A stretch of 63,323 nucleotides of DNA, the filler included, from Sphacelaria rigidula (lineage: Eukaryota): assembly GCA_964200075.2 (NCBI GenBank). It is 5 parts of 5 records of this genome, joined end to end, with 100 filler letters (N's around TTAATTAATTAA, not from the genome) between each part and the next. Parts side by side here need not be neighbours in the genome. Positions count along the whole stretch, not along the records: positions 1 to 12,587 come from CAXNAA020003599.1; 4 more parts are not named here. One strand, given 5' to 3'. Shown piece by piece: positions 927-59,694 of this stretch (the stretch's first letter is position 1; the number at the start of each line of letters is the position of its first letter). Under the pieces are notes generated by a model. It was not told the origin of the DNA. It did not search any database and saw only the letters and a program-made list of their open reading frames with translations. A program made the translations under genes and the position numbers.

Positions 927-3900
927 GCATCCAACCTTCATGTCCGTCGCGTTCGTAGTGCTGATGCCGGAGGGCGTCGTCGCGTATCGAAACCACCTGC
1001 TGCTCGACTCGTTCGGTCCTATCATGCAGCACGGCACCAAGCACAAGAATAGAACCATCCACATGACCTTGCTGGTGCGTAAATGATGGATTGGCCGTCA
1101 GGGATTACAGCATTCGCTGGGGAATCAGGGGAGGGCGTGCTTATGTGTCGCTTGCCTCAGTCCGTTGATCATGGTCTACGCATCCCGTTCGAGACGGAGC
1201 ACCGTCCCTACTCCTCATAGGAACACCTCGAACATTTGGGCGCTCATGAAGTTTTTTTCATGCGCTAAATGAAAACCCTTGACGTATCTTTCCCCCTTCC
1301 CGTTTCGCCGCCTGTGGCCACGGTCTGTCTCCTAGTATAGCGATAATTCTCTCCCCACTATCTAGTGTACCACACGATTTCATACCACCGTTGTTTACTT
1401 CCTACACTCCCTCCTCTAACACGTCTCATTCCTCGCTGTACAGTTCATATTCTGCCACCATATAACTTGTACTCGACATGTTTCTTTGCCACAGAGGCAA
1501 CTCTGTGCGTCTACTTACTCTTCCCCCCGACTAGTGGTACACCTATTACACGTCGTTCTTCTTCCTGACGGATCCATGTCCCCCACCCGAAATCGCACTT
1601 TCAACGTATTCGCGTGGTCCGTCGGGCAGTGCAAACATACCATCATCTTTATCCCTTCCATGAATCCTCCGTAAATCCTCAGGTGTACTTCTTCGTCTAC
1701 TTTCCGTCTTTGCGCTTCTTTCCCCCTTCTTTCTATGATGTCTCTTACTTGAGTCTTGTACACTCCACATTCACCTATGGACATTATCTCGTCTTGGTTG
1801 CTTCCTATATCCTTCCATTCTTTCTCGACTACGCTATCCCACCTTGTTCCAATTTTTCAGCGCAGAGTTGACTTATGTGCCCATTATTTACCCCGGAAGT
1901 CATGGGAAGGTATGAAGCGAGAACCTTCGGGTTATACTGAGCCATGCACAAGCTAAGAAGCTGTATGAAATACAAATGATGTACGACTAGTACAATCTTT
2001 TCATTGAAATGATGGCTCTGGGTTGACTAAGAGTCATCATGTCACATCGCCAAAAATTCTGAAAGCATCGTGTGCGCAGTCGGGACCGTCACCGTTCACA
2101 GTACGGTAGGGTATCACAGTAATGTTCTGTGTTATACTGTGCTGCTCTGCGTTGGGCTTGTTCTGTTGTGGTAAGTGTAGTGAGCCCGTGAGTGTAGTGT
2201 AGTGCAGCGTACAGTGTTGTGTTGTGGGAGAACACAGTACGCTGTCGTGCTGGTTTGTGCGGAACTGTGTCGTGATGTGCTGTAGTGTGTATTGTAGTCT
2301 AGTCTAGTGTAGCGTAGCCTAGCCTAGCCCAGCGTAGTGTATCCGTGTTGCTGTGCTAGGCTTTGTTGGCCCCGGACAAGAAAACCCCTGGTGGGTTCTG
2401 TCAAGGTCCGTTTTTACACAGCAATTGCCAACTGCGGTGAACCACCATACACCACTGCGCAACTTTGTTGACGATGTGCAATCTACCATATCCTCGATGT
2501 TTTTTCCCCGTACTATGGTACCGGCCACATCCCCTTCGCTGTCGGTTAGTCTGAAGCACACAGAAGTGAATAGTGCTTCGTGTACCGGCACGGCGGAGCA
2601 AATCGTACAGGTGCTTTCAGTACAATATTGCGTGTTGCCTTCCTGTGAGGGCCCAACACATCAGCATACGACCACGCCGTCGATGGTTCTTGATTGGAAG
2701 AACGCATCTTTCCACCATTACGCAGAGGTGCCGCTCGTGCACGGTACTAAACAGCCGCGGCGAACTACCGCGCCTCCTTGTACCTGCCGGATCTGGTGTC
2801 ATGTTGACTCGCCATGATACGCAAGCAATCATGCTGTATAAACCATTGGTCCGCTGAGTCGAGGGTGGATTACACATATGCAGCGCATTACGCATGGGAA
2901 AAAAATAGGCGTGATACAGGCCCCATGAACATGAAGTGGCAGAATTCAACTCTTTGCCGAGTGTTGGTGCCACATTCACTCGAGGGTGGATAACATATAA
3001 CATATTGTGCAGTGCAGGCATCTTGCGCGCATTGCAGGCTTGAGAAAAGTCTGTGTGGTTCAGGCCCCATGACTGCAGATTAATTAACCTTGTTGACTTA
3101 GGTAGGTCCCGCATTCATCCGAAGGTGGGAAACATATACGGGCGCTCACGTCGAACTTGTCGCACATGGCGTGCATGTACAAGCCATTCACGCCTTGAGT
3201 CACGAAGAAGGGTTGACTGCGTGAATTACATCACGCCTTGAGTCATGAAGAAGGGCTGACTGTGTGAAATACAACTGATGTACGAACCGCATGATTTATT
3301 CATTGAGATGATGACTTTGAGTTGACTCACGAGTTGATTTGTCCTAACCGTGCAACTATGGCTGGCAACCTTTTTCTTGGCATGTTCGTTGCGCTATCAT
3401 GCCGTTTCAATTTCCCAAGGTTTCTATCTGGTTCACGTGGGTACATTCCGAATGCTGCTCTTGATACTGTATTTCTCGTCGTTTTTAGGCATCCAAGTAT
3501 TTTCTTAGCTGCTGTCATTTGTGCTGGCATGCAAGTATTCAGTACTTGAGGTCTAGCGCAGCAGCCTTTGTTCATTAGTCACCTGACAATGATGGGTGAA
3601 GATGGGGAACAAAGAAGTAAGCATATGTAGGGGGGCACATGACCCGTCCACCCAGCTCATATATATATATAATTATATTTTTCATCTCACACTTGTATTC
3701 AGGAAAATATTTGTACCGTATACTTCCTATCGAATACCACTTTACGCAAGTATTCTATTCGTGGAAACATGGAACAAAATCATCCTGAAGTATATTGTTC
3801 GTGCACAGAGATCCAAAATATGAACACTCTCCCTTCGGCGTTTGGTGTAACAAAAAAATCCGCTTGAAATGTTTTACCAAAAAACTCGAAACCAAAAACG

Positions 3901-6900
3901 TACAGTCACTCTTTAACCAGCAAGAAATTTCTGCGAGCTATCAATGCTTCACGGGGCAGCGCCTTTGTAAAAATGTCAGCGTGCTGATTTTCATTATTTA
4001 CGTGCTCCACCAATATCTTTGTTTCTCTACGAACCCTCTAAGAAAATGGTAGCGTGCATCAACATGTTTACTATTCGACGAACTGATTGGATCCTCTGCT
4101 AATGCAATCGCTCCCTCGTCGTCTTCTAACACCCTGATGCCCTTCAATTTCTTGCCTGGTAGAAGAAACTCTACTACTTCATTACCAAACAAGGCTTATT
4201 TCATTCCGTCGCCCATCGGTACATACGCTACTTCTGTGGTTGGAGTAAACACACATTTCTGCCTCCTAGAAAACCAGGGTACTGGTGAACTACCACATAA
4301 CACTGCACCACCGGATACCGACCGCCGCGCCGCGTCTTCCTTGCCGTAATCCACATCTACCTATGCTGTCGTTCTCACGTCTACATGTGATCCTGCGTGA
4401 TACGTGAGTCCCAAATTTGCAGTTGCATGAAGATACTGTAGAATCTTCTCGGTTGCTTTCCAGTGAATTTCCTTCGGGTCATGAGAATGTCGCGCCACCT
4501 CTTTTACTGCGTCAGCGATGTCAGGTCGAGTCCGGTTGGCGATCCAGATCAAGCGCCCCACCACTTCGTGAAACGGAACATTTTTTACGTCATTGTTGTC
4601 TCTCACGGACCTGAGGTTCACGGACGGAGAAGCAGGGAGAGAGCTGCAGCGAAAAAATCATCTCGTTCGAGCACACTTCTAATATACCTTGTTTGCGATA
4701 ACTCAATGACCCCCTTCTCCCTATTACGTTTGTACTCTACCCCCGTGTACCACGCGAAATCTACCAAGTATGTTGTCGGTAGTCTATCGTTTAGAACGTC
4801 GACCACTGTCCTGCTCACACTCCTTGACCCCCCCCCCCCAATAATTTCATCAACGTGCAAAACCACCGCCCCTACCGAGTTACCATCAATTACCAAGCGC
4901 ACTATGCACGGGTCTGACAGACACTGCTCATACTCAATTTCCATGAGCCTTCACGCTAACAGCTTGCAAAATTGTCTGGCTCTTTGTTTCAAACTGTTGG
5001 CGCTTTATTCAGGAGAACGATTTTGCCTGTCGTTGATCCGCAATCGGGGGGTAGTTTCATATACACTTCATCGTCCAATTTTGACTGTATGATATGCCTG
5101 TTCTACGTCGAAATGACTTAGATCCCATCCATGTATGTTCGCCAACGCTACAGGAATACGAAGTGTTGCAGCACTTGCGGTAGGTGAAAATACCCCTAGA
5201 AAATCAATCTGATACCGCTGACTAAATCCCTTTACTATTAACCTAGTTTTAGAGCCTAGCTTTTGCCTTCAAAATTTCGCCGTTGACACCTGTTTTCCAC
5301 TTGAAAACCCATTCAGCGTCTACTATATTCCTGCCTTCTGCAAATGACCCTACTAACGCAAATGTCCCTGCAGCTAGTAACCCTCCTAACTCTAAGTTAA
5401 TAGCCTCCTCCCAGGGTTCAGCATGTATAGAGGCGCGGGCTTCGGCAATTGTTGTTGGCTCTGGCTCGGCGGCCTTGGTAGGACATGCAAGTATCTCGCT
5501 CGATATCTTGCACGGCCTTCGCTCAGCAATCAGCACGCGCAAAATCTGGTCCCCGCTGATGGATCCCAGGGTGGCCAACAAACCGGTCGCTTGCTGTTGA
5601 TTCAGCGCCCGCGTGTGATCTTTCATCGGAAGATGATGATGATTCGCTGTTGGATGATGATGGTGATGAAGATGGATTTTTGCTTGATGATGAGGCCAAT
5701 GGTTATGGAAGATCAATTGGCAACGTAACGTCTATGTCGTTGAGCGCACTCATCTGTTATGGACTGTTCTCTACCGTCTGAGACGGTACTCGCACACGGG
5801 GTACTCCTCTTCCTGTCAACGGCCATATTCCCGCTGAGTCGTCGTCGCAGTGCCCATCCCCCCTTCCTGTTGCCGTTTCCTCCGTTAAAAGAGATTGCGG
5901 TGGCGGCAAATATTGCGGCGGTGCCTTCCAGGTGACATCTCGAGTCTCAATGACTTTCCCTTCCCGCGTCAACACACGGTAGGAATCGCGTCGATGTTCA
6001 AGTGAAGGCCCTAGGTAGAAGCAGCTCTCAGCTTTGGGCAAGTGAGTTCGATGGCCCCTTCCATCGACAGTAAGCAGACTCGAGGAAGGGGTGTGGTTTA
6101 GCCGGCGTAGCCGTGCCGAACCGCATCTCGTTCGGTGATTTGTTGTCGGGGTTTGAAGTCGAAGCGGTGTAATAGAGCTGTTTACACGCCCAATGCATGG
6201 CCTCGGCCCACAGCTTGTCGGTTATGGGAAGCTGGACGTGGCCGAACAAGACCTTAGCCTGAATCCTGGCCGCCGTTGCTGTTGCTTCGCTGATACCTAG
6301 ACCGCGCTCTGCTACGCCGTTGAACTGGGGACTGTCTGCGGGTGTGAATTCTTGCGTAATCAAAAGTAGCGCATACTGATCTCAACTTATTTCCGGAAAA
6401 TGCCCCTCCATTATCAGATCGTACTCTGTGTACTGTTGAAGGAAAGCCGTCAGCTCGTACGTTCGCGAGGAAACAGTTGAAAGCCAAATCAGAACCAGAC
6501 TTCCTTGTAAAAAAATACAGCCAATATTTTCGATTGTAGCCATCCTGGACGATCATTGCCAAATGTTCTTACCCCAGCGAGGCCACATTCTTTTCATCTT
6601 GTACATCTCCGAAAACTCCACCAAGCATGTTTTGAGCTCTATTCTCAGCTTGACGAGGAACACCCTTTCCGTATCCTTTGCCATTGAGCATGCAGTGCAT
6701 GCGTGCATTTGTCCTTCAAGTGTAACATTAAGTTTTCGAGCGGTATGCTTCAAGAAGGTTTCGTCAGCATGATCGTAAATACAGTGGAACAGATTGATAT
6801 CCGTAATGAATTTTGGAGGGGGGATTCGATGGCATGGGTGCTGGTAAAGCAGAAGCATCATGTTGCTCTCCGAGTTGATATGGTATGACCAATGACATAC

Positions 6901-9164
6901 CATCCCGCTTTGCAAATGTCACACTTCCGTTGAATGTAGTCATTACACCATCTGGACCACCTCAACGGTCCTAACTGTTAGCACCAAATTCCTCACTGGA
7001 TGAGATAAGGTTGTATCCGATATTAGGCCCGCACAGTACATCTTTCAATTCTGCAACGTACTCATTCTCCTCTGTTTTAAAAACTGTTAGATTACCCTTC
7101 AACGAAACATCACATGTTACGCCTCCTACCCCTGTTACGCTGAAATTTACCGGTCTGAGATCTCTCATACATCTCAAGGAATCGGTTCAATGCCGAGATG
7201 CACAAGTATTACCGTACCACTTTTCATGAAAAGGTCTGGAAACAGAAGCAGCCACTGCTCTCAATTTGACAAGCTTCCCACTGTCGCTCTTGAACTCCGC
7301 CACAGTCTCCTTGGATGGAGCCTTCATCACCCGGGCTTGGCAATACCGAGGCATGTGCGAAAGACCACAGCGAAAACATTCGGACGGCTTTCTGTTCTCC
7401 TGGTTTCGGGAACTGGTTCTACCCGATTTGCTGCCTTCATTTCTGCTCGTATCTATACCATTGGCAACCAGTGCCTGCCCATTCTGTTTTCCCATTCTTC
7501 CTTTTACTGATAGATCTAGGTACCTGTCCCATGCATGTTTCTTTATGACCTCTCTATTACGAGGGTAAATGATCCTCATGTTTTCTTTTACGTTGTTGTA
7601 TTCACGCATGAATCCATTCAGCATCAAAGAGCATACTACAACTATCCTCTTTCTCCACTCCTAGCATGGGAAATACACCGAGAACTTCGTTGAGCTGCAA
7701 GAATGTGTGAGGGTCTTCCCCGTGTTTCATCTGTGGGCTATCCTAGCAGCTGGATGGGTTGCAGGACCCAGGTCTTCTAATCCTGCTGATACCGCCCGGA
7801 CACCTGCGGTTGCAAAGCCGCAGGTATCCTGTCGGTGACGTCTGCAACACGTTCCCCGGCATACTCCACAGTTGTTGCTCCCCGCGCGCTAACCCCTGTG
7901 GAGGACTCCTCGCGACCCACACCCTGGTCGCTGTTTCCCCCCTGTGCCCGTGTACTGAGCTCAACGACATTCTTCAAGTCATTCATCATTTTCTTGGGAT
8001 TTATCATTTTCGCTCTGTGGACGGGCAAGGTCTTCATCCCGTGTAGTTGAGGAGCTACTGCCGCCTACTTGGCTCCCAGGCGTAGAAATCATGCCACAGG
8101 TGATCAATCTGTGCTGTCGGCCGAATCGCTAGCGTATTCAGTACTTGAGGTTTACCGCGGGCAGCTTTTGTCCATTAACCAAGGACGGTCGCCTGACAAT
8201 GATGGGTGAAGATGAGAAACACAAAAATGAGCTTGGTAGGGGAGCATATGCATCGTTCATCCAGCTTATCCATTTTTCATCATATTATTCTACTCACACT
8301 TGTATTCAGGAAGACCGTTCTACTGTACGTACACTTCCTATCGAACACCGCTTTACACATATATTCTATTCCTAGATATATGGAACAAAATCATCCTGAA
8401 GTATATTGTTGGTGCACAAAGAACCAAAATATGAACAGCAAGGACTCGGAAGGCAATATATTGCTTGCCTTGAGCACCATTCGTTGAAAGTTGCGTGCGA
8501 AAGTGACGTCTGGGTGCTAGAGTAAGAGCTTCTGGGCGATCGTTTTTTTTGTCGACGTGTGCTTCAATTCCTAATGTGATGTGATATTATTTATAATTGA
8601 TTCATTATTATTATCACCATATATTTGTTAGTACTACTGTTGTTACCGATTACTAATCGTTTTCCTTGTTACTGTCTACGAAGTGTTTATTATTCTTATT
8701 TTTACCATTTCCATATGATATTTTGTTACCAAATACTCGTTGCTGTTACCAAATCTTTATTATTTTTGTCACCATTTATTATTATCTTTATTGATATAAT
8801 TTACTTATAATTGTGTTTGTTATCATTTATATGTCAGTTGTTGCGGTTACCTTTTTTTTTTTATCTTCTATCACCGTTTGCCCATCATTCGTGTTACCAC
8901 TTCTATCAATGTTTTTGTTGTTGATGGTGTTGATGGTGCTGATGTGAGGTTGATATTTCGCGTGAAGAACAAGCGGAGGTGAAATAACGGCGGCGATACA
9001 GCAGGAGCAAGAGTGAATTATGGAATCCCCCTTGTCATTGCTGTGCGTTGCAGGTGCTATCTTCCATGTTTGCTGGACTGGGCTTGGTATTTATTTTGGC
9101 GAACAAAATTTTAACGGGGAAGAGCCTTGCGCCACACTCGCTGCACGGGTACATCGGCATCATC
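927..9164 (+). CDS. Cytochrome b561 domain protein (CYB561D1/D2-like), partial: exons 927-1074 and 9054-9164; other exons not found on this contig
   Basis: Exon 927-1074 (ttcag|...|gtgcgt) reads (W)HPTFMSVAFVVLMPEGVVAYRNHLLLDSFGPIMQHGTKHKNRTIHMTLL. Exon 9054-9164 (ttgcag|...|gtgagt) continues in phase 0 as VLSSMFAGLGLVFILANKILTGKSLAPHSLHGYIGII. The WHP..M, R.IH and SLHG..G motifs supply three of the four heme-ligand His of the b561 family. Confidence 0.8.
1090..1860 (-). mobile_element. Decayed 3' end of a non-LTR retrotransposon (LINE), C-terminal part of the RT ORF plus 3' end
   Basis: Minus strand gives frameshifted RWDSVVEKEWKDIG..IMSIGECG..LRIYGG..TLKVRFRVGDMD. The 3' end matches a second copy at ~35320-35400 (+). 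Confidence 0.7.
2100..2360. repeat. Degenerate (GTGTA/GTGTT/GCCTA) pentamer low-complexity tract
   Basis: Visible gtgtagtgtagtg and tagcctagcctag periodicity. Confidence 0.7.
3340..3530 (-). mobile_element. LINE fragment (post-RT region)
   Basis: QMTAAKKILGCLKTTRNTVSRAAFGMYP..MPRKRLPAIV is the segment expected just upstream of the 1090-1860 piece. Confidence 0.65.
3536..8437 (-). mobile_element. Ty1/Copia LTR retrotransposon with both LTRs, degenerate (multiple frameshifts and stops), inside the b561 intron
   Basis: 5' LTR 8135-8437 and 3' LTR 3536-3826. Exact 5-bp TSD GCAAG at 3531-3535 and 8438-8442. PPT GAAGGGAGAG abuts the 3' LTR. Domain order is gag (CFRCGLSHMPRYC knuckle), PR (WYGNTCASRH), IN (RSDNGGAF, PQFNGVAER), RT (WVFKWK..KAKARL, LHVDEII), RNaseH (EDDEGAIALAEDPISSSNSKHVDARYHFLR). 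Confidence 0.95.
8575..8960. repeat. AT-rich low-complexity tract of TTA/TTG/ATT triplets
   Basis: Strong T-rich trinucleotide periodicity. Confidence 0.7.
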
Positions 9165-10094: not shown

Positions 10095-11334
10095 TACATG
10101 TACATAATACACATGGGTTGAATGAAGGGAGAAAAAGCACGCGAGTCATCGCTTTGTCCGCTTCGATCGAGGAAGTGTATATTGCCCTCCGCGAAAAATA
10201 AACAGACGTGGACAAACAAACACAACTGATGAGGGAGCCTCCAATTACATAAAACGATGTTTTCGTGAGATCGAGAGTAGAGGATACGGTTGAGAAGGAA
10301 AAGCGGTCAATTAGTGATTTAATCGTTTCAGTTCCGAAATATCCCTCCGCGAGGCCCTTACCGAAGCAGCGGGCTAACTCACAGTTACTAACCTGCCAAG
10401 CACCGGCATAGAGATGATCCTGTGGAGTCAGTGTTGCGCCAAAAGCAAAAACGTTTTTTCGGAACAAAATCTAACCGTTTTGCCCTCTAGTGCGCACTGC
10501 TATCGCACAGCACCAGATATATCGACTTGGAACTGTTGACTGTGGTTTGCACAGCCTATGAGCGATGTTTCAGCACCTCGCAGCGGCTGCAGCGCGCTTA
10601 GGGCCGTGCGCCATGAAGTGCGCAGCTCAACAGACTGTATACCGATCGGTGCACTACAGATGGTCATGATCCAGAAAGGACCGCGGTACAGACCGGCGCC
10701 TGTTTACTACCGCGTCGGCCGTCCAGTCGATCAACATGCCTAAGTTTATGCATCTGCCCATGCATATATGCATTCGCCTATAGTGCGACACTGGTAGACC
10801 TAAAGAAATGTACATGAACAACGATTGGTACTCGATTTGACTTGGTTTCAGACTACAGAAAGTTCTGATGGAAATCATGATTTGGGGCAGGTGAGTAGTG
10901 GTGAGCAGTAGAACCAGGTCGTCCAGAACGTGTTTTGGTCCAAAATCGGCTCGAAGGCGTCGATTTGAGCTCTCGAAAGGCGTCGATTCGAGTTCTCGTA
11001 ACGAACGCTTTAGCTGCGAAACTGCACCCCCCTTGCCCGAGAGTTCTCGGTATGCCTTGGTCGATGTTAGTGCTAGGGTTAGCGTTAGGGTTGGTGGCAT
11101 CTGCATAAGCACCAACCATTGTTTACGTACATTTCTTCAAGCCCCCTCGGTGAAGTACTTGTGCAGGGGTGCATCCTTGTCTAAAGGACATCCTTGCGCC
11201 GGTACTTCACAAAGGTGCATCCTTTGAGGAAACTCTCTGTTACGGGTTGCATGACCACAGGAATTTGTTCACCCCCCTGCGCTTGTCGAGCACAACTGCG
11301 ACCGACAGTGAGGACGTTTGCCCACGTGTGTGCC

Positions 11335-11766
11335 TGGTTCAAGTCGCCAACAGCTCATTGCACGGTCTTGGTTTTGCTGGTGACTAGGGCGAAGGCAATG
11401 TTCAATTGTTTTCAACTGCTTTGCTTTCATGTTCTTGTGACATTCGCTACACAACCGCTGTCTTCGTACTCCCGAATCAACGAGAACGCAAAGAAATACC
11501 CCGCCATGAACAGGCTTTTGTGGTTCGGGTTCTTGTTTGAAGTTTTCCATGATGAGGCTTTTGTGGTTCGGGATCGACACCCCGCGAAGAAGAGCCAGTT
11601 TGAGCGACTTTCGGTGGCCAGAACACGCGCCACAGGTATCAGATGACACCCAAACCTGAAAGGTAATGTACCACTGCACCTTCTTCGTGCACTGCAAAAG
11701 AAAGCGCGTGATAAGATGCCTTGCCGCCTGAGGAAACTCGGCAAAAGTAGTGAAAAAGTGAAATGA
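11335..11766 (-). mobile_element. 5' part of the same Helitron-like family
   Basis: The reverse complement aligns by eye with 53741-54230. Confidence 0.65.
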
Positions 11767-11807
11767 TACATGTACATATATATACAAGCTGTTCGAGACC
11801 GAGGCTA

Positions 11808-12687: not shown

Positions 12688-13620
12688 CCTGGGTGGGGGG
12701 GCACTCCCACCTTGGTGCCTATCCATACATTCGCCGGACATGCCTACCCCCGGGTGGGCATGTCTGACGGGTGGAGCGACTTGAAGCGCCGCACGAAACT
12801 AGAAATAGCGAAGTGCACGGTTTAAGGTTCCTTCCTGTCCTCTGGGGACCAAAAGAAAAAATCATCTGCCTCGTAATATAGAGGCGTGTTAGTTTTAGTA
12901 CGGAAAGGGGGACATGATGCCTCGCTTAATCCTGTTGTCATTATCCTGATATTGGGCCTCCCCACCGTGGGTCTGAGAACGAGGGGGATCTATACAACCC
13001 ACGAAACCGGCGTGCAGTACTTGTAAACCGACCTCGGTTGCAGTAGGAGCAGGCTCACGGTAGGAAGTACTCTGACAGCCCGGGCCGAAAGGTGAACTTT
13101 TTTCCACGCATGTTGTAGTTGTAATTTTATCTTGAACTTCATTGTTGATGTGGTTATTCAAAAGAGAATGCTGCTCTTCCGGCAGTCGTTCGGTGTACTG
13201 TGTTGTACATGCCACGTGCGTGGAATGACCTCTCTCTGTGTCTGTGTGCTCGCAAACCTTCCAAGCACGCTCTCCGAGCTACGCAAGGAGCACCGCTCGT
13301 TGGGGCAAAGTCAAAACCTCACCTGGTAGAATTCAGGAGTTCTGTTCGTCAGTCTTCACGTTGCCAGATGGAGTTCAGCACTTTGTTACGATCACAGAGC
13401 TGGAATGCTGAGTTGGAAACGTCGTCTAGAATGTAATACCGTATGTAGAAATCAGCGTCAGAGCGTCTCTCTCTCCTCCGTCCTATTTCACACTTGCACT
13501 TTCCTCCTACTAATTTCGAACACTCCGTCTCGCTGTATCCCCACTCAGACAAAGGTGAACTGCGAAGTGCGAACCCCAGCAAAACGACAGCCAGTAGATT
13601 CATTCTGTCACCAAATCATC

Positions 13621-16600
13621 ATGCAAGGAGTAACGCGCCGAGCACTTGGGGGAGCCTCGCTTGTGAGGAGAGCGGGTGGGGCGACCGTGCCTGTAGCTTC
13701 CGCAGGGCGACGAAGCTACCATGACAACATCGTGGAGCATTATGAAAACCCCCGCAACGTTGGCTCTATGGACAAAAGCGACAAGTTCGTGGGCACGGTA
13801 AGTAGAGAGGGATTGATTCATTTTTGATGATCTATGAGATGCGCTGGGACAGTAGATGTGGGTCCGTTCGATCCTAAATTTTTCAAGTACTCGTGGAGAC
13901 GGTGGTTTACACGGCTTCATTGTTTCGCGTTTGCCTGGTGTATGATTTGTGTTCCACAATGAAGACACCAAACAGCAGCCTAAACTACTCTAAAATGTTC
14001 ATGAAGGCGGGGCATTTCCTCTCATGAGTTTCTTGTAGTGAGGGGGAAAAGAGGGTAGTGTGAGGTCACCAAAATGGCCATACTACCGTCGTCACGATCA
14101 GCAGTTCGCCGTTCAATTGCCGGCAGTACCGTTACATAGCAATACTTTCGTCTGCTGGAGAGAGGGGCCGCGGTTCAAGGGAAGTATGTTGAAGAATTGC
14201 CGCTCCAACAGAGGTCAAAATGGCTTGGCACCCCCCTCTCAACAATAAAACCGAACCTCGTTTATTTTAGACCGCACCTACCCGTCATTCCCCTGCTCTT
14301 ACAGCCCGCCGTTGACAACCAGTGCAGCAGTCTGTCGTCATACTGTACATCAGTACAGTAGTTGATGGATAGCTCACAGCTTCACAGGCTGCAGCACGAT
14401 TCCTTGCGTAGCCGAACGGTGCGTAGCCGAGGTGTCTCACTATCTTTGTAAGGCCAAGCTGGCCTGGATGAAAGAGTTTGGGTCAAGGAAAAAGAAACAA
14501 ACTTGCGTGGCAGACTTTGTGTAAAGTTGCATGTGCTACCGACGGGCACATCCTTGATGTCCGTCGCCGGGTACCGTAGGAAAGATGTAGGCTCTTGATC
14601 GTCACGGATAAGATTTGTTCGCACCCTTCTTGGCTTCAGTCGGTTTCTGTACTGGTTGCTGTAGCACTTTCTGCGGTTTTCGATTTTTCGGTCCTTGCGT
14701 TTTTTTTTTTTGTCGGACGAGGACGAGTATGGCTCGTGGTACTCGCACTCGTTCGGCTGCTCGTGAGCCGTTGTTGGAGGTCCTCGAGGACTCGAATCAT
14801 TGCTCGTGGTGGAAAAAAATAGTAGGGCGAGAAAGTGATGCCACGTTAGGGGTGCATTTTTCAGCCCAAACGCTTCTGAGGCTGTATACTGAGGCCCAGA
14901 TACTTGTCACCAGGCGGCTCCTACAACGAAGTCCCACAAGAAAAATAGGCACCCTTAACGTGGCATTGCTCCAGTACTAGAGCCATCGCTCGTGGAGGGA
15001 TTGTGAATAACTCGAGCACGCGAGTCATGCTCGTGGTGAAAAAAATAAAGAACTCCAGCACACGAGTCATGCTCGTGGTGTTTGAAGAAAACATCAACGA
15101 GTGCACTCGTTCCGACGTGTAATGACTCGTCCGACGTGTGCTTTTTTGCTTCCGAGATGTAACGTGTGTGATGCCGGTACAGTAGACGCCATACAGAAGT
15201 GCACAGCAGTCAGCTGTACAGCAGTACTTCTGTACTCGTTCTCGTGTTCTCTTGACAGCTCTTTTTAGATATTAAAGCAGCTTCTGTACCACGAAATAAG
15301 GCTGCGGTGTTTTTCCTCATCACAACAAGGAGGAATCGTGCTGGGTGTGGGTCCTGTATCGCTCCATAAAGAATTGAATACGTCAACAGTTCAATGAGGG
15401 CCACGGCACAAGCGTACCTTCCGGATCTCTTGATTTCACCCACAGTTCATTCTAAAACCCATATATGGCAATCGGTTTACCAGAAAATCTCTTGAAAAAA
15501 CGATACAAAAAGTCATATTTAAGAAAGGTGAAGAACATCTTGGCGCACCTCTCTTTTGGACAGTGGCCCCCACTCTACGCGATTGGCATGCCTGCCGGTC
15601 CGATGGTGGTGGCGATACTGTACTGTGCTCTCGTGAAGGTCTGGAATCAGCCTCACCTCAAGGAGGCAGTGGAACTCCTGTTCCGTCCTCTGCTGTACGG
15701 TGTTCATGGCGGTCTCTTGTATGGTGCGAGGGTGCTTTTGCAAATAAGGGGGGGGGGGGGGGGGGGGCGTTTTTGACAAACTATCGTCAGTTTTTTTTTC
15801 AAACCAATGTGTGTGTGTTTCCCGGGGATCTCTGACGCCCAAAATTAATGACGCCTGTCGAAAACCCGCCTAACGATGACAGGTTTTCACTGTAAGTCTC
15901 GCCTCCTATTATTATATTTTTTTCATGCTGAGCACTACACCCATGTTGCCGTGCCACCCACATCAAAGCATCACACCTACGGTGAGCTTCGTGCTCAGAC
16001 CCATTATTCTTGTGCAGCAGCTGACTTTGTAGTGCGGTGTGTTTGTGTTGCGTTTGAACCCTGCAAAGGCGGTTTGATCTGCTCTGGGGATTGCCTGAGA
16101 TCATATTTTATGGCAACCAATCTCGATTTGTTCACATACGAGGATTCCGGTCCATCTACAGGCGATTTTCTCCCATGGATTGATTTTTCGGACTCCAGTG
16201 CGTGGGTCGATATTTTTCCGGTTAGCTGTGAGAAAACCAGATGAACTCTCCGATTCTGATGACGTTGACTTTTGATACATGGTCTTTCTGCTCAAATCAC
16301 TCCCGCATTCCCCCCGATTTTTTGAATCGGGGGGAATGCGGGGGTGCCCCGATTTGAGCAGAAATGTGATGAGCCGAAAGTGAACATCCAGAGAATCGGA
16401 GAAGTGATCAGGTTTTCTGAAAGCTAACCGAGAGATATTGCCCAACGGACTGGAGTCCGAAAAATCAATCCACGGGATTAAATCGCATGCAGACGGGGAC
16501 TGAAATGCTCAAATTTGTACAAATCGAGATTCGTTGCCATGAAAGGTGGTCTTGGCTGCTGTGCCGTATTTGTGTCCCGGTCGGTGCAAAAATGAAAATT

Positions 16601-19158: not shown

Positions 19159-20789
19159 AAATGATGGCCTGCATGACGATGGTAAAAACGTCGATATACC
19201 TCCGTTGCTTTAGCATCGATTGGTCACCGTAAGCTTGAAAAAGGACCATGGATTATAGAGTGTGATGTCACTGTTCTCATTATACAACAAGTTTCGTCGT
19301 GCTTGTACTTGGGCTCTTTCATGGGGGAAAGATATTCTGGATTAAGAGATGGAGTTGGAGCATGGTAATGATCATGGTCGCACTCTTCCGTGTAGGGGCG
19401 TGCCCTGAGGCTATGCTCAAACAGTGTGGAGTGGGGACAACACACGACTTGTTCGCATCCCATGTTTTCATTAGATTTTTCAGTTCGTGTTCTGCTGGCT
19501 CATACGCCCGGACGTTTTCGTTTTGGCGATCGTACGTACGCAAGTGGCTCTTTTGCGTCCAAGTGTTTGAATCATTCAAATGTACAGTTGTATGTCGTAT
19601 AGACGTGAAAACATATGTTCCCTTGGTTCTACCCGGCGCGAGTTTGAAGGTTTGCAAAACATACAACCGCTTTTGGTTTTCAGGTCGTTCATCTTTTTAT
19701 CTCAGCAGTAGATTCACGACTCACCGATGTTTGAACGGCGACGCGCTCGTTCAACAATGAATAACGACTTATGACAAACGTGCGGAGATTCGTCACGAGC
19801 TTCGCATATGTCAACACGTCAAATATACAACGTTGGGTTTTTTGTCACGTCGGGTAGTGGAACTTGCATCTTGATCTCATCGCATCTCTCGTCATATTGC
19901 CCACCTCGTCCACTTGGTCTAGACGGGGCCGCAAAATCACGAGATTAACCTTTTTTACTCTCCGGTACCTTCCTGACATTTTGGTATTTCCTGTTGAGCT
20001 ATAATAGCACTCCTGCACCCCAGCATCGACCGTCAACTTTCCGCCCATGACGTCCGTCTACTCTCGAAGACGGAAACGAGGTGATACTTGACAGGACGGC
20101 AGGTCTATCGGGACTCGAACCTCACCCCCACCTGCAGCAGTCTCAGCTGGCCATTGATATATGAATCAGGCAACTTGGGTGCGGAAGTTCTGCTTCTGAA
20201 GCCTCGAACGGCAATTTAACTCAGCGGGGCACGAGCTTTTCTTGAACGACTGAAAACTGCAGTGGTTCGAGAGAGAGTCGGCAATGTCTCTCGGTTTTAG
20301 CACCTCCGCCCTCCCTCCAATTCCAACCTCGGAGGATTGACTGTCTTGCATTTGATTTAGTGTGAGCTCGTAATAAGGAGATATTGATATGTTTTCCATC
20401 AATGCGTGGATGGATGGAGCATTGCATATTTTCGTGCGGGAGTTTCGTACTGGCCGTGAGATCGCTCACCCGGTAACCAAGATGAAAATTTATCCGGAAT
20501 TTGATTTGGTTGCCGCGTAATAGTCGTGAAGACGACGACTCCGAACCCAGTAGTGCTTCATTGCTTTACCCGTTTCAATCCGTATTCATGAAAAAAATGG
20601 GCCCGTCGCAAAAAGCAGGAGACGAGAAGACGGCAGCCGTGCACAAGGAGGGGGAGGATGGGGGGTGTACTCATGATCATGCATGCCAGTCATGAAACCA
20701 TTGACCTAAGATCAGGAGCTGTATGGCCGTGTTTTTTCGTGACGCTTTTTGGCTGGTGTTGGGGGGGGGGGCTACCGTAGAAAGTGTCA

Positions 20790-21039
20790 CCGGTTCGATT
20801 GACCGAAAATACCGAAGAGGAAGAATCTGGGCTGAAACGTCGCAGGACCCCCGATGACCGGTCAGCCCGTGAGTCACTCAATAGTGAGTACATATGATTT
20901 TTTTCTCTTGGAATATGGAGCAGAAACAAATATCTTCAGATCCCCAATGTGGTGATCGGGGCAGGCGAAAAGAGCCTAAAACAATCCCCAATCACGAAGA
21001 AATCACCAAATGCCTCAATAGTTAGACCGTCTACTACTG
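20790..21039 (-). mobile_element. Truncated copy of the ~550-bp Tc1/mariner-type MITE
   Basis: Ends AATAGTTAGACCGTCTACTACTG|TA. The body is the reverse complement of the 5' half of 59695-60243. Confidence 0.75.
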
Positions 21040-22354
21040 TACGTTATCAGAGGTGTCTCTGGTCTTATTCCAAAGTAAGCCTGACTCGCATGCAGCCGAT
21101 GTGCTTGAGCACCTGCGTGACAACCCGCAGCCTCTTCGCTGCTGAGCATGATGTGCGTACCGCGAATTCGGTGCGAATCGTTGGTACTCAAGTTTGCATG
21201 AGCCCTACCGATGGTGCTCAGGTGCCCACAGACTGGCACCCCTTTTAACCTCTGGGTCTTCACCATCGATTCGCGACACAAGTATAGCAATGTAAACGCT
21301 TTGTCTTGTGCCTCGTTCGAATCACGTGTTTCATGCTAGTAATAAAAACTATCTGTACTGCAGTATGGTTGCGCCCTTGCATTCCTTGACAAAAACTACG
21401 CTTTCCGCGCCTCGTACACAGTTCATGATAACCGGAGCATGTCGGTGCCGTTTATATCAGGCATAATATCCATTTTTGAACTGGTACGGTATACTATTTG
21501 GTACAGCACGCAGCATGCGGCAATACTAGATCGAAAAAATGGGTTCACCATACCTCCAAGTACAACAACGATGGACTCGCTATCATCTCTTCTGCGTGTT
21601 TTCGAATGAAACGTGATGAAACATGAGGAGCACTACCGTGACGGGCTGCCAGAGGAAAAAAAGAGGGGAGTATAATGCTGTAGTGCACAAGCGCGCTGGC
21701 ACGACGTAAGCAACACGGAAAATCGCGCACGCGCTAGCGCGCGTGCCGCTCGAAAAGAACGCGCTCCGCGCGCTTAATTTAATTCGGTGCATTTCTTAAT
21801 TTAATGCAGAGGTTAACCGATGGGTGTAGAGCCGGTACTGCGTACCAACCGCAGCGTGACGCCTTCGGCGGTACTCCCTGCTCACAGCGGCAAGGTGCAC
21901 GGTTAAAAAGCACATCGCAGGACGTGACATCCTTAGCTCATCCCTGTCCTGCATTGGTTTCGCGTTCTCCTCTGCAGTTTGCCACATCATGAATGCAGCC
22001 GCTTGTATCGCGGCCAACTTGTACGCGGGATAACACGCCTCGCTACGCGCTATATCGCTACGTCACATTGTGTCGAGCTGTCCATGTTGCAGCTACAGCG
22101 TGCGTTTTCCCCAGGTGGCGCACGCAGGAGTGAAAGGCCGCCTCCGCCGCTATAATGGCTGCCGGTATCTTGGGCAAAGCTGTATGGTAACACAGCCGCG
22201 GCTGGTGCGCCCACATATACCTAAAGGTGGAGACCGGCGTCGAGAATAGATGGGACGACAACACACACAACACACTGACTTTGTGCAGTACACTTTCAAC
22301 ATCGTGTTCGTACTGACTGTCGAAATCGTCTGTCCACGGTTGGGTACATTTCTA

Positions 22355-23776: not shown

Positions 23777-24731
23777 CAAATGAAATTCAAAAAGGAAATC
23801 GTTCAAGTAAAACAAATGTTAACTTCCTTCATAACCATGCTCCGCTAGGAGATTGGATTTTTATCAGCGAGAATAGCAAAAAGTGTACACCTTGATTGAG
23901 TGACTCACAGTATGGTCTTGTCTCACAATACGAACTCCCGCCACCCGATACATGTCTGTGTATGCGAGATGATTTCACACGTACGTCGGACGGATCGAAT
24001 CGTGACAGATCCGGGTCGGCTCATGTGGGGCATGGATTGTGATCTGTCCGAGGCGTGCCGTCACCCGTGCACGTTTGTCCGATGGAGATCTGCAGGACCC
24101 GCTTGACCCGTAGATAATTTGCCGAGTGACGAGCTATATGACCCGCTTCATACACATTTCATCATAAAGATCTGACCCACAGAACAGTGTAATCTGTACA
24201 TCACATTGTTGTCATCTATATACCTTGGCTCATTCAAACGCAGCAGCTTGTCGTGGACCCGTGTGATTTGAATCTCACGTATACCAAAGCTACCCCTTAT
24301 CTGCGGAATCCGAATCCAGTACACCAGAAACGGTGAACACTATTCAGAACAGGCAGCGACATTTCTCAAGAAACTCTAATTTGGGGCGAGGATCGTTCCT
24401 TATTTTATGCCCGAACCAAGCGTATTTCTCAAAGCCAATCTCATACTTTCCGCACACGTGCAATGATGGATTTAATTAAGGTCAATTCCATATTTTTCCC
24501 AGACTCGTAGAAAATGATGGAATTCTGGAAAGCAGTAAAAAATGTCGTTTTTTGCCCACGGATGCGGCACTACAGCATAGCAACACATTTCATTTTTGCT
24601 GCAGTGTTGCTTGGATAGATTATCCGCAGGAGGCCTCCAGTAGAGAAAAATGTTGAGGAGTACAGTAAAGGTGTACTGTATTGCTGTGCAGTATATGTTG
24701 ATAGAGACTATCATGCCGGGTAATCGCAATA

Positions 24732-25140
24732 CAGTAGTGGGCAGTTTAACTATTCAGTTTGTGGCATTTTGTGATTTTTTCGTAATTGGCGATTTTCTTG
24801 GGCTCTTTCCGCTTGCCACCGCTCATCACATTGAGGATCTGAAGATATTTGTATCCCCTCCACATTCTAAGAACAAAAAAAGATATCTGTACTCAATATT
24901 GAGAGGGTTACGGGCTGACAGGTCATCGGGGTTCCTACCACGTTTCGGCCCGGATTCTTACTCTTCGGTATTTTCGGTCGATCGAGTCTTCTATCCCGAT
25001 CATATTTGTGAAGACATGTCAAGTTAGAGCCTACATGTTTTTGAAATTTTACCTACTCATTGCACTAGAGCCGAAAAAGCGTGTTTCACGGTTAATGACA
25101 TCCTCCTGGTAAACGGGGTATTTCTCGTATCGCCCGATAG
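24732..25140 (+). mobile_element. 3'-truncated copy of the Tc1/mariner-type MITE
   Basis: Starts TA|CAGTAGTGGGCAGTTTAACTATT; body matches the other copies. Confidence 0.8.
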
Positions 25141-27924: not shown

Positions 27925-37546
<9,622 letters not shown>

Positions 37547-38056: not shown

Positions 38057-38475
38057 GTTTCGTGCAGACGCCAGACACGTCATCCCTGACCAGCCCCCTT
38101 GGTCGTTCTGGAGGCTCGGTCCCAAAAGGGTTAATAAAAACCTTGAAGAAAGTGGGTCATAACGTACATCCTTGTGCAACTCCTTGTAAGATATCAGAAT
38201 ATTTCGATATTTCCCCGTCTAACATCATGGCACTTTTGGCACATTCTGTCATCTTCATCATTCTCCACATCTTTCCTGATCCCAGTTTCCCACCACTTTT
38301 TCCACAACCCATTTCTCCATACTGTATCGTGAGCCTTTTGCACGTCCAGAAAAAAACAGTACGTTGTAAGCCCGGTGTCTTTCGTACCCTGAATAATCTT
38401 CCTTAGTGTGTACACATGGTCTACGCAACTAGGGTTTGGTCTAATTCCTGCTTGTCCCTCGCTGATTTTCTCTAC
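38057..38475 (-). mobile_element. LINE reverse-transcriptase fragment, decayed
   Basis: TTYCFFLDVQKAHDTVWRNGLWKK, same family as 61690-63323. Confidence 0.85.
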
Positions 38476-38907: not shown

Positions 38908-41900
38908 CACCGACGCCGCTGTAGATCCGAAGGATATTAAAAGCACCACGTTCACGTTGTCTGCTCGAAAGAAACGCCCGCGGGTACGAGCGCGTATCCC
39001 GTGCATTTTTTTAGGAACAAGATCAAAAGCGAGAGCAAAAGCAAACAACAGCAAACAGCAGCAAACACATATACACAGAGAGAGAGCACAGGATGGAAAC
39101 AAGCGCAGAGGGAGTTAACGCTGTAAATTATTTCCACTGTCCATGCTAATCGTTCCGATTTTTCGTGTACAGATAGTCTCGCGAAGTTTTCGAGGGTGAC
39201 CTCTGGTAGTAGCGTGCATACACGGCAGCCGGATGAATGTGGGGGTGGTTTGAGAAGCCGCACTGATGCGGGGGTAATTGTCCGCACAACTCAAGGGTGC
39301 GTGAACGGAAGTCGATAGGCCTGGTTCAGGGCAAAGAACAGTTGTAGAACGGTTCGTGTTATTTCTGGTCAAACCCTCTTCTCTTCTGCACTCAATCTCT
39401 CACACTCACTCACCAAACACTTTCATGCAAACCCCAGAGCAAGGCACGATGGCAGAAGCACCCAACCAGACTGAGGACGTGGGGCCGCCCAGCTGCTTGT
39501 GGAGCAATCGTATTGTACTCGCATAACATACGTCATTGGACACTGCTCTTCTGATTGGCTACCATAATCCTCCGCAGTTCCAACATGCTTGATGCCACAT
39601 GTGCCACACCATCCCTTACATCGTTATCGTTCATGTCTGAGGGTGAGCGTATTTGATCACCCCCCCCGCTCACGGCTGAGTCGTGATCTAAAACCTATAC
39701 TGTTGAAAATTGGAAAGAAAAACACCAATCTGGCGAAAAATAAAAATATCTTCGGTCATGCTCAAACTCCGTAAGTACATCATATTAAAGGTCCAATTTA
39801 TCCAGAAAACAGTACCTACTGTATTATACGCCCCGTCACCCTTTATCACTCTTCCCTTCGCGGAAGTATACTCCATGGTGGCACTACAATAGAAACTGAG
39901 GTTAATACGATCAAACTCGAACTGAACTACGGTAGCAAAACGATACAATTCAAAAAGATCTGACCGGGATTTCCACGTAAAATCAAAGTCATAAAGCCTG
40001 AATGTTCAAACATTCTAGAGCCACGCCAGTTCCTTGTACGCAGCATGATCTCCAACAAATCCTGAAATTCCCAGTGAAACTGACTCTCCTGGGGAGGCGG
40101 AAAGCGCCATTTACATGTTTATAACAGGGTCATCAGCAGGCGGCAGCTCAGCAGTGGACGTAGGATGGGGGCGTCACCGGTTGCGAATGTTGAGCGGATG
40201 ACCCGTAGGGATAGAATGAAGAGTATGGCGGTGATTGTGCAGCTGAGGAGGGATCACGGGGGAATTGGTTGGGCGATGGAGTTGGTGACGGCTGATATGG
40301 TGCGGGTGCAGGCGATAAGGGATGGAATAGGGATTGGCTGAGTTGTGGGAGGCGGTGGCAGGTGATATGATGGCGGTGCAGCTGATGACGGATGATAGAG
40401 GCATTGGCTGTGAGGTGGTGTCGGTTATCATTGATACGATGGAGATGCAGCTGACGAGGAATGGTGGGTGTAATCGGATGTGGGATTCGGTCGAAGTTGA
40501 TCGTAGGATGACAGAGGTGATGTGGAGCAAGGGAGATGTTCGGTATCAGGAGTAGCCTGCGACTGCAACTGATGCTGAGGGGTATCGTACTGTAAAGTGT
40601 GAGCAAAATCGGCCTCGTCAAAGGCACTGTCTTCGTAAACAAAGTTATCAATACCCTCGTCGTGATGCTGCCTGGGGGTATCGGTTTGCTGTACTGTATT
40701 GGCGTGGGGTGGATTGTCGTTAATGTGGTGTTGTTGATGTGGGTGAGATGAATGTTGGAATGAGCCCTGCTCATCTGGAAATGGGTGGGTGTCTAGGCGT
40801 GGATTGGTAGGGTGGATATGTTGTCGATGAGGAGGACAATTAGGGCGGTTGAAATGTGGGTGAGATGAATGTTGGAATGAGTCCTGGTTGTCTGGAAAGG
40901 GGTGGGTGTCTGGGCGTGGATTGACAGGGTGGATATGTTGTCAGTGAGGAGGACAATTAGGGCGAATGTTGGAATGAGCCCTGATCATCTGGAAAGAGGT
41001 GGTTATCTGGGTGTGGATTGGCAGAGTGTATATAATAACGGTGAGGAGGACAAGCAGGGCGGTTCTCTGGGCGTGGATTGGTGGGGTGGATATATTGCCG
41101 GTGAGGAGGACAACTAGCGCGGTTGAACCGCCCTTATTTCCCTCATCAACGACAACATATCCACCCTACCAATCCACGCCCAGACACACATTTTTCCAGA
41201 TGATCAGGGCTCATTCTAACATTCATCTGACCCACATCAACAACATCGCACAACGGAAATCCACCCCACGCCAATACAGTACAGCAAACCGATACCCCCA
41301 GGCAGCATCACGACGAGGGTATTGATAACACCTCCCTTGCTCCACATCACCTCCGTCATCCTACGATCAACCTCAACCGAATCCCACATCCGACTACTAC
41401 CCCCACCATTCCTCGTCAGCTGCATCTCCATCGTATCAACCATCACCGACACCACCTCACAGCCAACGCCTCCACCATTCCTCACCAGCTGCACCGCCAC
41501 CATATGACCTATCACCGCCTCCACAACCCAGCCAATCCCTCGTCGCCCCCCCCCGTTCTGCCTTTTGCCTGGTGAACCATGTCCCCCTCCACTGCCGGTA
41601 GCAGTAGCAGAGAGGGCGTGATGTGAGGGTTTCCTTTCATTCTCCTTAGAGAAGTGCAACTCTGCATACGCATTCTCTATTTGATGATTCAGATCCTCAA
41701 TCCTGATCACACGGTTTGCCAATGATGACCTGCGATCGTGCTCGTACTCAGACGAAAGGCATCTTACGATATGTCTGTTCGCCTCTGAGTCCGAAAGGAA
41801 AACGTCAAATCCTACGCGTTTTTTGCGAATAAATATAGCCCGAGCAAGGAAAGTCATCGGCAATTCTCTGTCAGCCATCTGCAGTGTCTGCCATTCGTAC

Positions 41901-52139: not shown

Positions 52140-53310
52140 CGCATCCGACGCTCGGCCACCAACTGGAGATTGCGCTGAGCACCTTCGCACCAACTATTTT
52201 TGCGAAGCGAATCATACCTGAATTTCAACATCACTAATTCAAGAATAGAGGTGATAGCGTCTAGGTATAGATGATCGATGGAATGAGGCAATCAGCTCCT
52301 CGAACCATGGCGGGAACTTCGACTTCATCGTGTGTATTGCATTCTGTCGTTAAACAAATTGTCTCCCACCTCCGTGACACCAGTGCTAGAGCTCGATTTC
52401 CGACCTCAACCACACCCAACATATATCTAGAAGCGCGTTTTACATTTTTTCGGTAACAACTATCTCGTACGAAGCGAGTGATACCTACTTTTCCAATCAC
52501 CAACTCGAAGAATAGAGGTGATTATGTCCAGTTATAGATGATCATGAGTGTGTGGATCATCGATGTGATGGACGGGTTTTAAGGATTTCCAGTACTGGCC
52601 GGTCCAAGTATATTCCATTTTGCGGAATTTTGTGATTTAGTCGTAACTGACGATTTTCTCGGGCTCTTTTCGCTTGCCAGCGCTCATCACATTGAGAATC
52701 TGAAGATCTTCATATCCGCTCCACATTCCAAGAAAAAAACAACTGTACTCAATAGTGAGTGACTTACGGGCCGACCGATCATCGGGGGTCCTGCTACCGT
52801 TTCAGCCCAGATTCTTACTCTTCTGTATTTTCGGTCGATCAAGCCTGGCCCGATCAAATATGTGAAGAAATGTACAGATGTAGTTTCTTCATTCTATCTA
52901 CTCATTGCACTACAGCCGAAAAACTGTGTTTTACGGTCAATAACACCCTCTTGATGAACGGGGTATTTCCTCGTATGCCCCGACAACACCAACTGACACT
53001 GACTCGGGCACTGTGTTTCGACGATGATATGTTCATGGTACCAAAAATGTACCGACGGTAGCAACTTCGAGTTCTATCCAAGAGTAGTACGCGAGGAAAA
53101 CCTCAAAACACCCCTGAATAGTTAGAATGCTCAGTACAGTAGTTCCTTGAACCATGAGGGGAAGTCACACTTCATTCTGTGTATTCATCGGTGTTTTGTC
53201 AAACTAATTCTCTGCCACCTCCGTGTCACCAGTGCTTGGGTTCGACTTCCGATATCGACCACGCCCGAAACATATCAAGAGGTGAGATACAATTTTTTTC
53301 GGTAGAGACG
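52140..53310 (-). pseudogene. Decayed, intronless, tandemly repeated F-box-like modules, interrupted by a MITE
   Basis: Three related units with frameshifts and stops: ..ALVTRRWQRI; DHL*LDIITSIL/ELV..RALALVSRRWETI; IDHLYLDAITSILELV..VLSAISSWWPSV. Confidence 0.35.
52590..53139 (+). mobile_element. Copy of the Tc1/mariner-type MITE
   Basis: Degenerate TIRs; body matches 59695-60243. Confidence 0.8.
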
Positions 53311-59408: not shown

Positions 59409-59694
59409 ACACCCACCCCTGCTGTGATGCAGCAGTATAATATGTCAACACCCTGAGTGCGGGCGTACCCTGCATCACAAGCAGTGTGATGTGTCTACAC
59501 CCTGAGTACGGGCATGTTTGGGATTCATTGTGTGCGCGGAGGGAGATGATACCGCTGTCGAAAGCTGGCACGCACATATTTAATACAAAGGAGCTTATGG
59601 CGATGTGTAGACTGGTTTTGGCGACAAGGATGGAGGAGAAGCGGTCGTTGGCGGACGGGTTACGTCTGGTTGAGCCTCCTCGATGGGGCACTTA

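Follow-up and report, generated by a model that had tools for sequence, protein, structure and literature searches.

Long terminal repeat (LTR) retroelements obtain the primer for minus-strand DNA synthesis in one of three textbook ways, namely from a whole tRNA, from half a tRNA or from a self-primer of the Tf1 type. The locus described here raises the question of what serves as primer when the primer-binding-site (PBS) position is taken by a short perfect palindrome. The window, i.e., the whole analyzed stretch of 63,323 nucleotides from Sphacelaria rigidula (assembly GCA_964200075.2), consists of five segments of about 12.6 kb each that are separated by runs of N, and it contains two LTR retrotransposons, hereafter called A and B. 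An earlier sequence-only reading had placed them on separate contigs, which is borne out by this five-segment make-up. In both elements the octamer CGCTAGCG directly follows the 5′ LTR, and it would form the core of the minus-strand start site, i.e., of the PBS position, common to these two unrelated LTR retrotransposons.

3536-8437, minus strand: element A, a degraded Ty1/copia LTR retrotransposon with an LTR pair and domains in Copia order
8135-8437, minus strand: 5′ LTR of A (TGTTCA...CTGAATA), from LTR-LTR alignment; other LTR copies have contigs that stop right at 8135
8127-8134, minus strand: octamer CGCTAGCG of A, first 8 nt past the 5′ LTR
3536-3826, minus strand: 3′ LTR of A, from LTR-LTR alignment
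3531-3535 and 8438-8442, minus strand: target duplication of A, CTTGC, 5 bp (GCAAG on the plus strand)
39251-43342, minus strand: element B, an LTR retrotransposon assigned to no superfamily, with an LTR pair and a polypurine tract
42891-43342, minus strand: 5′ LTR of B (TGATCA...CTTCTCA), from LTR-LTR alignment
42883-42890, minus strand: octamer CGCTAGCG of B, first 8 nt past the 5′ LTR
39251-39659, minus strand: 3′ LTR of B, from LTR-LTR alignment

The alignment of the two LTRs stops right before the octamer in A (CTGAATA followed by CGCTAGCGATTCGG at the 5′ LTR and by CTTGC at the 3′ LTR) as well as in B (CTTCTCA followed by CGCTAGCGGAGAGA and by AACCA, respectively). The boundary previously given for A is in agreement with both the 5-bp GCAAG duplication and the LTR-LTR alignment. 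Likewise, the statements that an identical and perfectly palindromic octamer abuts both LTRs, that the LTRs of A and B are dissimilar and that TGG is absent from both sites were confirmed, the first by a search of the window together with the LTR alignments, the second by blastn and tblastx, which yielded only chance-level matches between A and B, in their LTRs as well as their interiors, beyond the octamer, and the third directly from the sequence. The window contains three copies of CGCTAGCG (at 8127, 21732, and 42883) vs. an expectation of 0.39, and none of 100 shuffles reached this number. The third copy (21732-21739) is located inside a GC-rich imperfect palindrome, GCGCACG-CGCTAGCG-CGCGTGC (21725-21746), and no recognizable LTR adjoins it.

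The sequence-only reading further held that A and B diverge right after the octamer. This is literally the case, but the diverging bases, ATTCGG in A and GAGAG in B, each complement the end of their own LTR. In both elements the bases after the octamer thus pair with the end of the element's own U5, with the terminal A of the LTR left unpaired (CTGAAT-A-CGCTAGCG-ATTCGG in A and TTCTC-A-CGCTAGCG-GAGAG in B), and the site is therefore an interrupted palindrome of 18-20 nt.

8136-8141, minus strand: arm 1 of A, CTGAAT, end of U5, pairing with arm 2; the terminal LTR A at 8135 is unpaired
8121-8126, minus strand: arm 2 of A, ATTCGG, directly past the octamer
42892-42896, minus strand: arm 1 of B, TTCTC, end of U5; the terminal LTR A at 42891 is unpaired
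42878-42882, minus strand: arm 2 of B, GAGAG, directly past the octamer
42897-42901, minus strand: outer stem strand of B, GCGGC, with GCCGC as partner
42869-42873, minus strand: outer stem partner of B, GCCGC, pairing with GCGGC

With one base unpaired, the arms form four Watson-Crick pairs followed by a G:U pair in A and in B, with one further Watson-Crick pair gained in A, and no comparable run of pairs was found in either element when zero or two bases were left unpaired instead. In a two-row alignment of A and B, 15 of the 16 cells pair and four of the eight pairs are changed on both sides; with the partner slid by 1-3 columns, pairing amounts to 30-56% and at most one pair is changed on both sides. 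Arms of 4 bp with Watson-Crick pairing over a 9-nt spacer are present at 266 of 62816 window positions, with A and B both having them in the same register. The predicted homodimers reach -26.0 kcal/mol for A and -28.0 kcal/mol for B. Copia junctions of the tRNA type are without such flanking arms, as at least five consecutive pairs across 36 registers were found for 4 of 34 junctions compared to 628 of 3000 random positions. The element-specific complementary arms strengthen the case for a putative self-pairing structure, and the site points to a selected structure at the minus-strand start point.

Neither element could be assigned to one of the known types of primer site. There is no TGG after the LTR of A or B, and the site is not built for the CCA end of a tRNA. 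The half-tRNA-Met motif is likewise absent after both LTRs. Concerning self-priming of the Tf1 type, neither 5′ LTR contains a stretch of at least 6 nt with complementarity to the first 24 nt past the LTR, and the corresponding duplex energies are weaker for the LTRs of A and B than for shuffled LTRs. No other candidate PBS was seen adjoining either LTR. Searches of the window with ARAGORN and Rfam revealed no tRNA or other RNA genes, and when both junctions were scanned permissively against Rfam, no tRNA or small nuclear RNA was matched, the only rows obtained being chance ones for small nucleolar or small RNAs.

For comparison, P0002 was aligned with its closest representatives, and this alignment served to compile a set of 80 listed Copia loci on metagenome contigs. 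P0002 is an intact reverse transcriptase (RT)-RNase H of 451 aa, an RVT_2 protein carrying PF07727, and it is 77% identical to a piece of A at 4361-4657 (RNase H), for which three proteins from public collections, P0002 among them, show 74-77% identity. The metagenome loci listed comprise a single close one, L001, which has 50% identity and at 1182 bp is too short, together with 79 Copia loci of a general kind with 32-39% identity. Among the 80 comparison loci, the site after the LTR is of the half-tRNA-Met type in 20, of the plant type matching the tRNA-Met 3′ end in 13 and of the metazoan type TGGTAGCAGAGC in two. The octamer does not follow the LTR in any of the comparison loci listed, its two occurrences there both being away from junctions, and the same applies to the fungal Conserved Hairpin Site motif described below, which follows none of the listed LTRs. 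A site of the A/B type was also absent from the 34 PBS junctions of other Copia elements. The comparison loci contained one tRNA only.

Because the site of A and B fits no site of the TGG, half-tRNA-Met or Tf1 type, an unusual start of reverse transcription is a reasonable reading. The earlier proposal of unusual priming thus holds in so far as none of these types applies and the arms favor self-pairing, whereas no particular mode has been demonstrated. Tentatively, we favor a primer supplied by element RNA that anneals to itself, probably in dimeric form, a reading that we consider plausible though somewhat short of probable. Two copies of the element RNA would pair via the interrupted palindrome, and in the resulting duplex the unpaired A of one strand would lie opposite the bond past the last G of the octamer in the other strand. 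Cleavage of this bond, similar to the RNase H cleavage by which the Tf1 self-primer arises, would generate a 3′ OH at the end of ...CGCUAGCG, itself base-paired with the octamer of the partner, and reverse transcriptase could then start by copying the unpaired A, which is exactly the end of the LTR. We infer the formation of the structure in RNA, its intermolecular nature, the cut and the priming from this arrangement of bases. Self-annealing, most simply as a dimer, is favored because all eight octamer positions are self-complementary, because the arms lengthen the same duplex, because the unpaired A would be placed opposite the bond after the octamer of the partner, and because the LTR ends at this unpaired A, where synthesis would begin. 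Of the 8/8 palindromic positions of the octamer a dimer needs all, a hairpin only the outer pairs and a host primer none. The palindrome that replaces the PBS in fungal Copia elements of the GalEa type is a precedent (PMC5445492, excerpt).

Several points weigh against self-annealing. The evidence comes from two copies, which are old and dead, judging by LTR pairs that are only about 79% identical (78.5% over 307 nt in A, with LTRs of about 300 bp, and 78.9% over 454 nt in B), and this reliance on two dead copies limits the significance of the finding. To our knowledge, Tf1 is the only element for which cutting within an RNA-RNA duplex is known. The Tf1 cut in such a duplex is also mentioned in the excerpted text of PMC5445492. 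Furthermore, the PBS palindromes of mouse mammary tumor virus (MMTV) are dispensable for dimerization, so that palindromes of this kind can be incidental (PMC8096270, excerpt). With only two sequences the shuffle control of the pairing is weak, and 27 of 500 shuffles equal the observed pairing values. As modeled, the monomer folds of A and B are not clearly better than those of shuffles: the predicted hairpin of A, with the loop CUAG, has -5.5 kcal/mol and 0.08 of the shuffles are as good, and that of B, with the loop CUAG and the outer GCGGC/GCCGC stem, has -14.7 kcal/mol with a shuffle mean of -10.1 and 0.06 as good. The wider junction regions of A and B fold at z-scores of 1.5 and 0.2.

Further copies of A were sought in public sequencing data. 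Five public runs from two studies, one of them labeled 'algae metagenome', contain at least half of the words of one unique part of the window, and contigs of four of these runs were aligned to 7700-8600 at 80% likeness. Two more diverged copies of the A family span the junction between LTR and internal region, with 47 and 51 differing letters over about 440 and 360 nt, respectively. None of the variant rows listed (40 of 140) falls within 8093-8143, the block of arms and octamer, and private changes are mostly found in other rows. That no well-supported difference is listed at 8093-8143 among these copies is weak evidence for conservation; their octamers were judged from 40 of the 140 variant rows, by which intactness is not established, and this too counts against self-annealing.

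Among the alternatives, the one that survives best is that the octamer is a short but ordinary PBS for a host RNA ending in ...CGCUAGCG, either a fragment of a tRNA cleaved elsewhere than in the anticodon loop or a different small RNA, and that the arms form a U5-leader stem presenting this site as in Rous sarcoma virus. A length of 8 nt would not be exceptional in this respect, the PBS of Ty3 being 8 nt as well. A common primer predicts the same short motif at the PBS position of unrelated elements of one genome, and the unrelated Copia elements of the comparison set indeed share either the half-tRNA-Met site (20 loci) or the tRNA-Met 3′-end site (13 + 2). The complementarity shared there extends over 12-14 nt, however, compared to 8 nt in A and B, and flanking arms do not characterize the 34 tRNA-type junctions. 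Half-tRNA primers other than Met are also on record, such as the half tRNA-Ile of Bianca (PMC6317226, excerpt) and the internal tRNA-Lys site of FunCo1 (PMC5445492, excerpt), and the initiation in Rous sarcoma virus needs an extra stem-loop (PMC5445492, excerpt). On the other hand, a perfect 8-nt palindrome would arise by chance in only 1 of 256 primers, and the lack of TGG, of a half-tRNA-Met match and of any tRNA or small nuclear RNA match in the permissive scan of both junctions also speaks against it. In sum, a host primer appears possible but rather doubtful.

A second alternative would be a monomeric hairpin with the loop CUAG, or a dimer-linkage or packaging signal at the border of U5 and leader, which Gag or RT would recognize, in line with a proposal made for the fungal Conserved Hairpin Site, with priming accomplished in another way. 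The compensatory arms suit a hairpin just as well as a dimer, and the outer GCGGC/GCCGC stem would extend the hairpin of B. Moreover, hairpins or palindromes together with the lack of a clear PBS are described for fungal GalEa elements (PMC5445492, excerpt) and for bivalve TRIMs (miniature retrotransposons with terminal repeats; PMC6934838, excerpt), and palindromic sequences were proposed as mediators of Ty1 RNA dimers (PMC4974528, excerpt). A hairpin would, however, be satisfied with the outer two pairs of the octamer, yet eight of its eight positions are palindromic, and the hairpin predicted for A is weak. In addition, an element with this hairpin alone would still be without a primer site, because no other PBS candidate adjoins the LTRs. 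We therefore regard this alternative as unlikely. Coincidence, i.e., two decayed elements sharing an 8-mer by chance with arms devoid of function, is very unlikely because the octamer is shared at a fixed offset and the arms differ in sequence yet keep pairing: although two copies were examined, perfect palindromes of at least 8 nt are plentiful (292 in the 63 kb of the window) and one-mismatch versions of the octamer show no enrichment (17 vs. 13.7 expected), the probability that a second, unrelated element carries the very same 8-mer at an equal offset can be put at about 4^-8, to which the same-register arms in both elements contribute roughly (266/62816)^2.

Returning to self-annealing, a more far-reaching version of it, which we consider improbable as a whole, would be a lineage that is free of host primers, in which two packaged genomic RNAs pair at the border of U5 and leader, a nick is set opposite the bulged A and the 5′ fragment primes on the other RNA, with a non-autonomous element of unrelated LTRs having copied the site so as to be mobilized and GalEa representing a second case of this third priming mode that is either independent or homologous.

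The designation of A and B as two Copia elements in the sequence-only reading is only half shown, because B is without any match to a pol domain. Element A demonstrably belongs to Ty1/copia: its pieces include the gag knuckle, rve, SH3_retrovirus, and RVT_2, and on the minus strand rve lies 5′ of RVT_2, i.e., the integrase upstream of the reverse transcriptase as in the Copia order. Many stops break its reading frames.

7187-7660, minus strand: gag zinc knuckle of A, CX2CX4HX4C, in an open reading frame (ORF) piece
6254-6562, minus strand: rve of A, E 7.8e-6, below the Pfam cut-off in this decayed copy
5757-6041, minus strand: SH3_retrovirus of A, ORF piece
4618-4944, minus strand: RVT_2 of A, E 0.0069, below the Pfam cut-off in this decayed copy
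3827-3836, minus strand: polypurine tract of A, GAAGGGAGAG, directly before the 3′ LTR
8117-8124, minus strand: second palindrome of A, TCGGCCGA, perfect 8 nt, two bases past the octamer
8095-8113, minus strand: possible hairpin of A, CACAG-ATTGATCAC-CTGTG, read from the sequence; its loop contains the palindrome TGATCA
39660-39671, minus strand: polypurine tract of B, GAGCGGGGGGGG, G-rich, directly before the 3′ LTR

The leader region of A at 8095-8124 as a whole showed a fold stability no better than that of shuffles. In B, the flanking bases agree at three of five positions and the interior comprises only 3.2 kb with tandem and inverted duplications. A family scan matched no pol domain in any ORF of B, and its sole family match, to TYA in the ORF at 41543-42055 (E 0.037), remained below the threshold with 13.5 bits vs. 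a cut-off of 22.9. Protein relatives of the B ORFs were not found, including among longer proteins, with one of the searches having been partly out of frame. Apparently B is either non-autonomous or rearranged, and it is probably a non-autonomous element. Its tandem repeats are located at 40737-41121 and 41400-41537 (within 40329-41540), and a large inverted duplication with 89-90% identity relates 41123-41329 to 40853-40644 and 41327-41540 to 40540-40329.

The relatives of A were placed by a quick maximum-likelihood analysis covering 82 RT-RNase H rows; the tree contained no named GalEa sequence, and L001 was left out (fewer than 330 residues covered). P0002 and five representatives form their own clade (Shimodaira-Hasegawa-like approximate likelihood-ratio support of 97-98), which is separate from the two loci bearing the metazoan GalEa-type PBS. 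The only other row joining this clade is L081, on a long branch. Viral contigs gave this one distant locus and no close relative, bacterial and archaeal genomes gave no relative, and the Protein Atlas yielded general RVT_2 clusters only. L081 originates from a 120-kb contig of a viral collection, with a Copia-like RT-RNase H at 786-2189 that is 32% identical to P0002; on its 5′ side the element ends at the contig edge, so that the PBS lies outside the contig, and the same contig has two adjacent tRNA genes. As intact relatives of A exist, as seen from P0002, an active copy may be available.

Apart from the two retrotransposons, the window contains five copies, about 80% alike, of a repeat some 570 bp long (52591-53126, 59690-60246, 30583-31106, 24730-25139, and, in reverse, 20789-21044). 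Bordered by terminal inverted repeats about 23 bp in length (TACAGTAGTGGGCGGTCTAACTA ... TAGTTAGACCGCCCACTGCTGTA), it looks like a miniature inverted-repeat DNA transposon; an assignment as LTR was rejected in favor of such a terminal-inverted-repeat element. At 13330-13827 an open frame is present, the end of which matches the start of NifU_N (ISCU-type iron-sulfur scaffold, E 1.2e-5) and which is probably an exon of a host gene. Inverted repeats are also found between segments of the window, namely 62771-63119 vs. 38131-38473 (84%) and 53725-54237 vs. 11329-11782 (74%).

When compared to known systems, the site of A and B shares with self-priming of the Tf1/Sushi and TAR types that no tRNA primer is involved and that the site complements the RNA of its own element. 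In contrast to A and B, where the adjacent U5 end and the site itself are the pairing partners, the pairing partner of the Tf1 PBS is the 5′ end of the transcript, within the LTR. Half-tRNA priming, as known from copia, Ty5, Osser, Bryco, and Bianca, has the Copia superfamily, the absence of TGG and the position directly past the LTR in common with it; these sites, however, match the anticodon stem-loop of tRNA-Met or tRNA-Ile, and A and B are without the Met motif. Plant Copia elements are described as primed by the 3′ end of tRNA-Met, by half of tRNA-Met or by half of tRNA-Ile, and self-priming is predicted for the TAR lineage (PMC6317226, excerpt). Similar to the PBS palindrome of MMTV, to human immunodeficiency virus type 2 (HIV-2) and to the Ty1 PAL sequence, A and B have a self-complementary sequence at or near the PBS that is discussed as a dimer contact, but the palindromes of MMTV, HIV-2, and Ty1 are located inside or next to a normal tRNA site of 18 nt.

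The closest likeness is to the fungal GalEa elements, which were described in 2017 as Copia elements without a PBS that have a palindromic 'Conserved Hairpin Site' instead (PMC5445492, excerpt). Their first sequence, CHSeq1, is the 9-bp CTGATCAGT or CTAATTAGT located directly past the LTR and palindromic when the last A of the LTR is included; CHSeq2, its inverse complement, follows 2-41 bp downstream, and some of the elements are predicted to form a larger hairpin that bulges at the LTR junction (PMC5445492, excerpt). In the excerpted text the authors report no Tf1-type complement and offer no mechanism. As in these elements, a short palindrome directly past the 5′ LTR replaces the tRNA-type PBS in A and B, the final A of the LTR takes part in the structure, a larger predicted structure has a bulge at the LTR junction, the conservation runs from the LTR end into the leader, and a Tf1-type complement is absent. 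The motif itself is a different one, CGCTAGCG vs. CTGATCAGT or CTAATTAGT. Furthermore, the final LTR A is part of the palindrome in fungal GalEa but an unpaired base in A and B, where the base after the octamer is A or G, respectively, and not the T that a palindrome including this A needs. The partner of the palindrome also differs, being the U5 end in A and B and the downstream CHSeq2 in GalEa; no convincing CHSeq2-like partner was found downstream of the octamer, the best one in A reaching 5-6 of 8-10 positions and that in B being only a bulged CTAGCGG...CCGC(TT)TAG. Host and RT lineage appear to be different as well, with the P0002 family forming its own clade. Its motifs are KARLVA, DVEQAF, HVDD, TRPDI, ADAD, and ADILTK, whereas the GalEa motif table gives DVKAAY or DITQAY, SDAS or TDGS, and ADCLTK, so that ADAD of P0002 stands against SDAS or TDGS (PMC5445492, excerpt). 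The metazoan GalEa site is TGGTAGCAGAGC, and GalEa elements also exist in red algae, with their PBS left undescribed in the excerpt (PMC5445492).

Whether the site had already been described, which the sequence-only reading left open, can thus be answered in part: a palindrome replacing the PBS is known from fungal GalEa (PMC5445492, excerpt), but its sequence and layout are different. A full-text literature search yielded no description of this particular site, with the octamer string retrieving cloning primers and unrelated papers. What is new in A and B are the U5-complementary arms; what was already known is the PBS-replacing palindrome of fungal GalEa. The mechanism is narrowed because the U5 end of the element itself is part of the palindrome here and the final base of the LTR stays unpaired. 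While the fungal GalEa palindrome already hints at a fourth, so far unexplained priming solution, this second case from an apparently different Copia lineage and type of host suggests that the solution may be more general.

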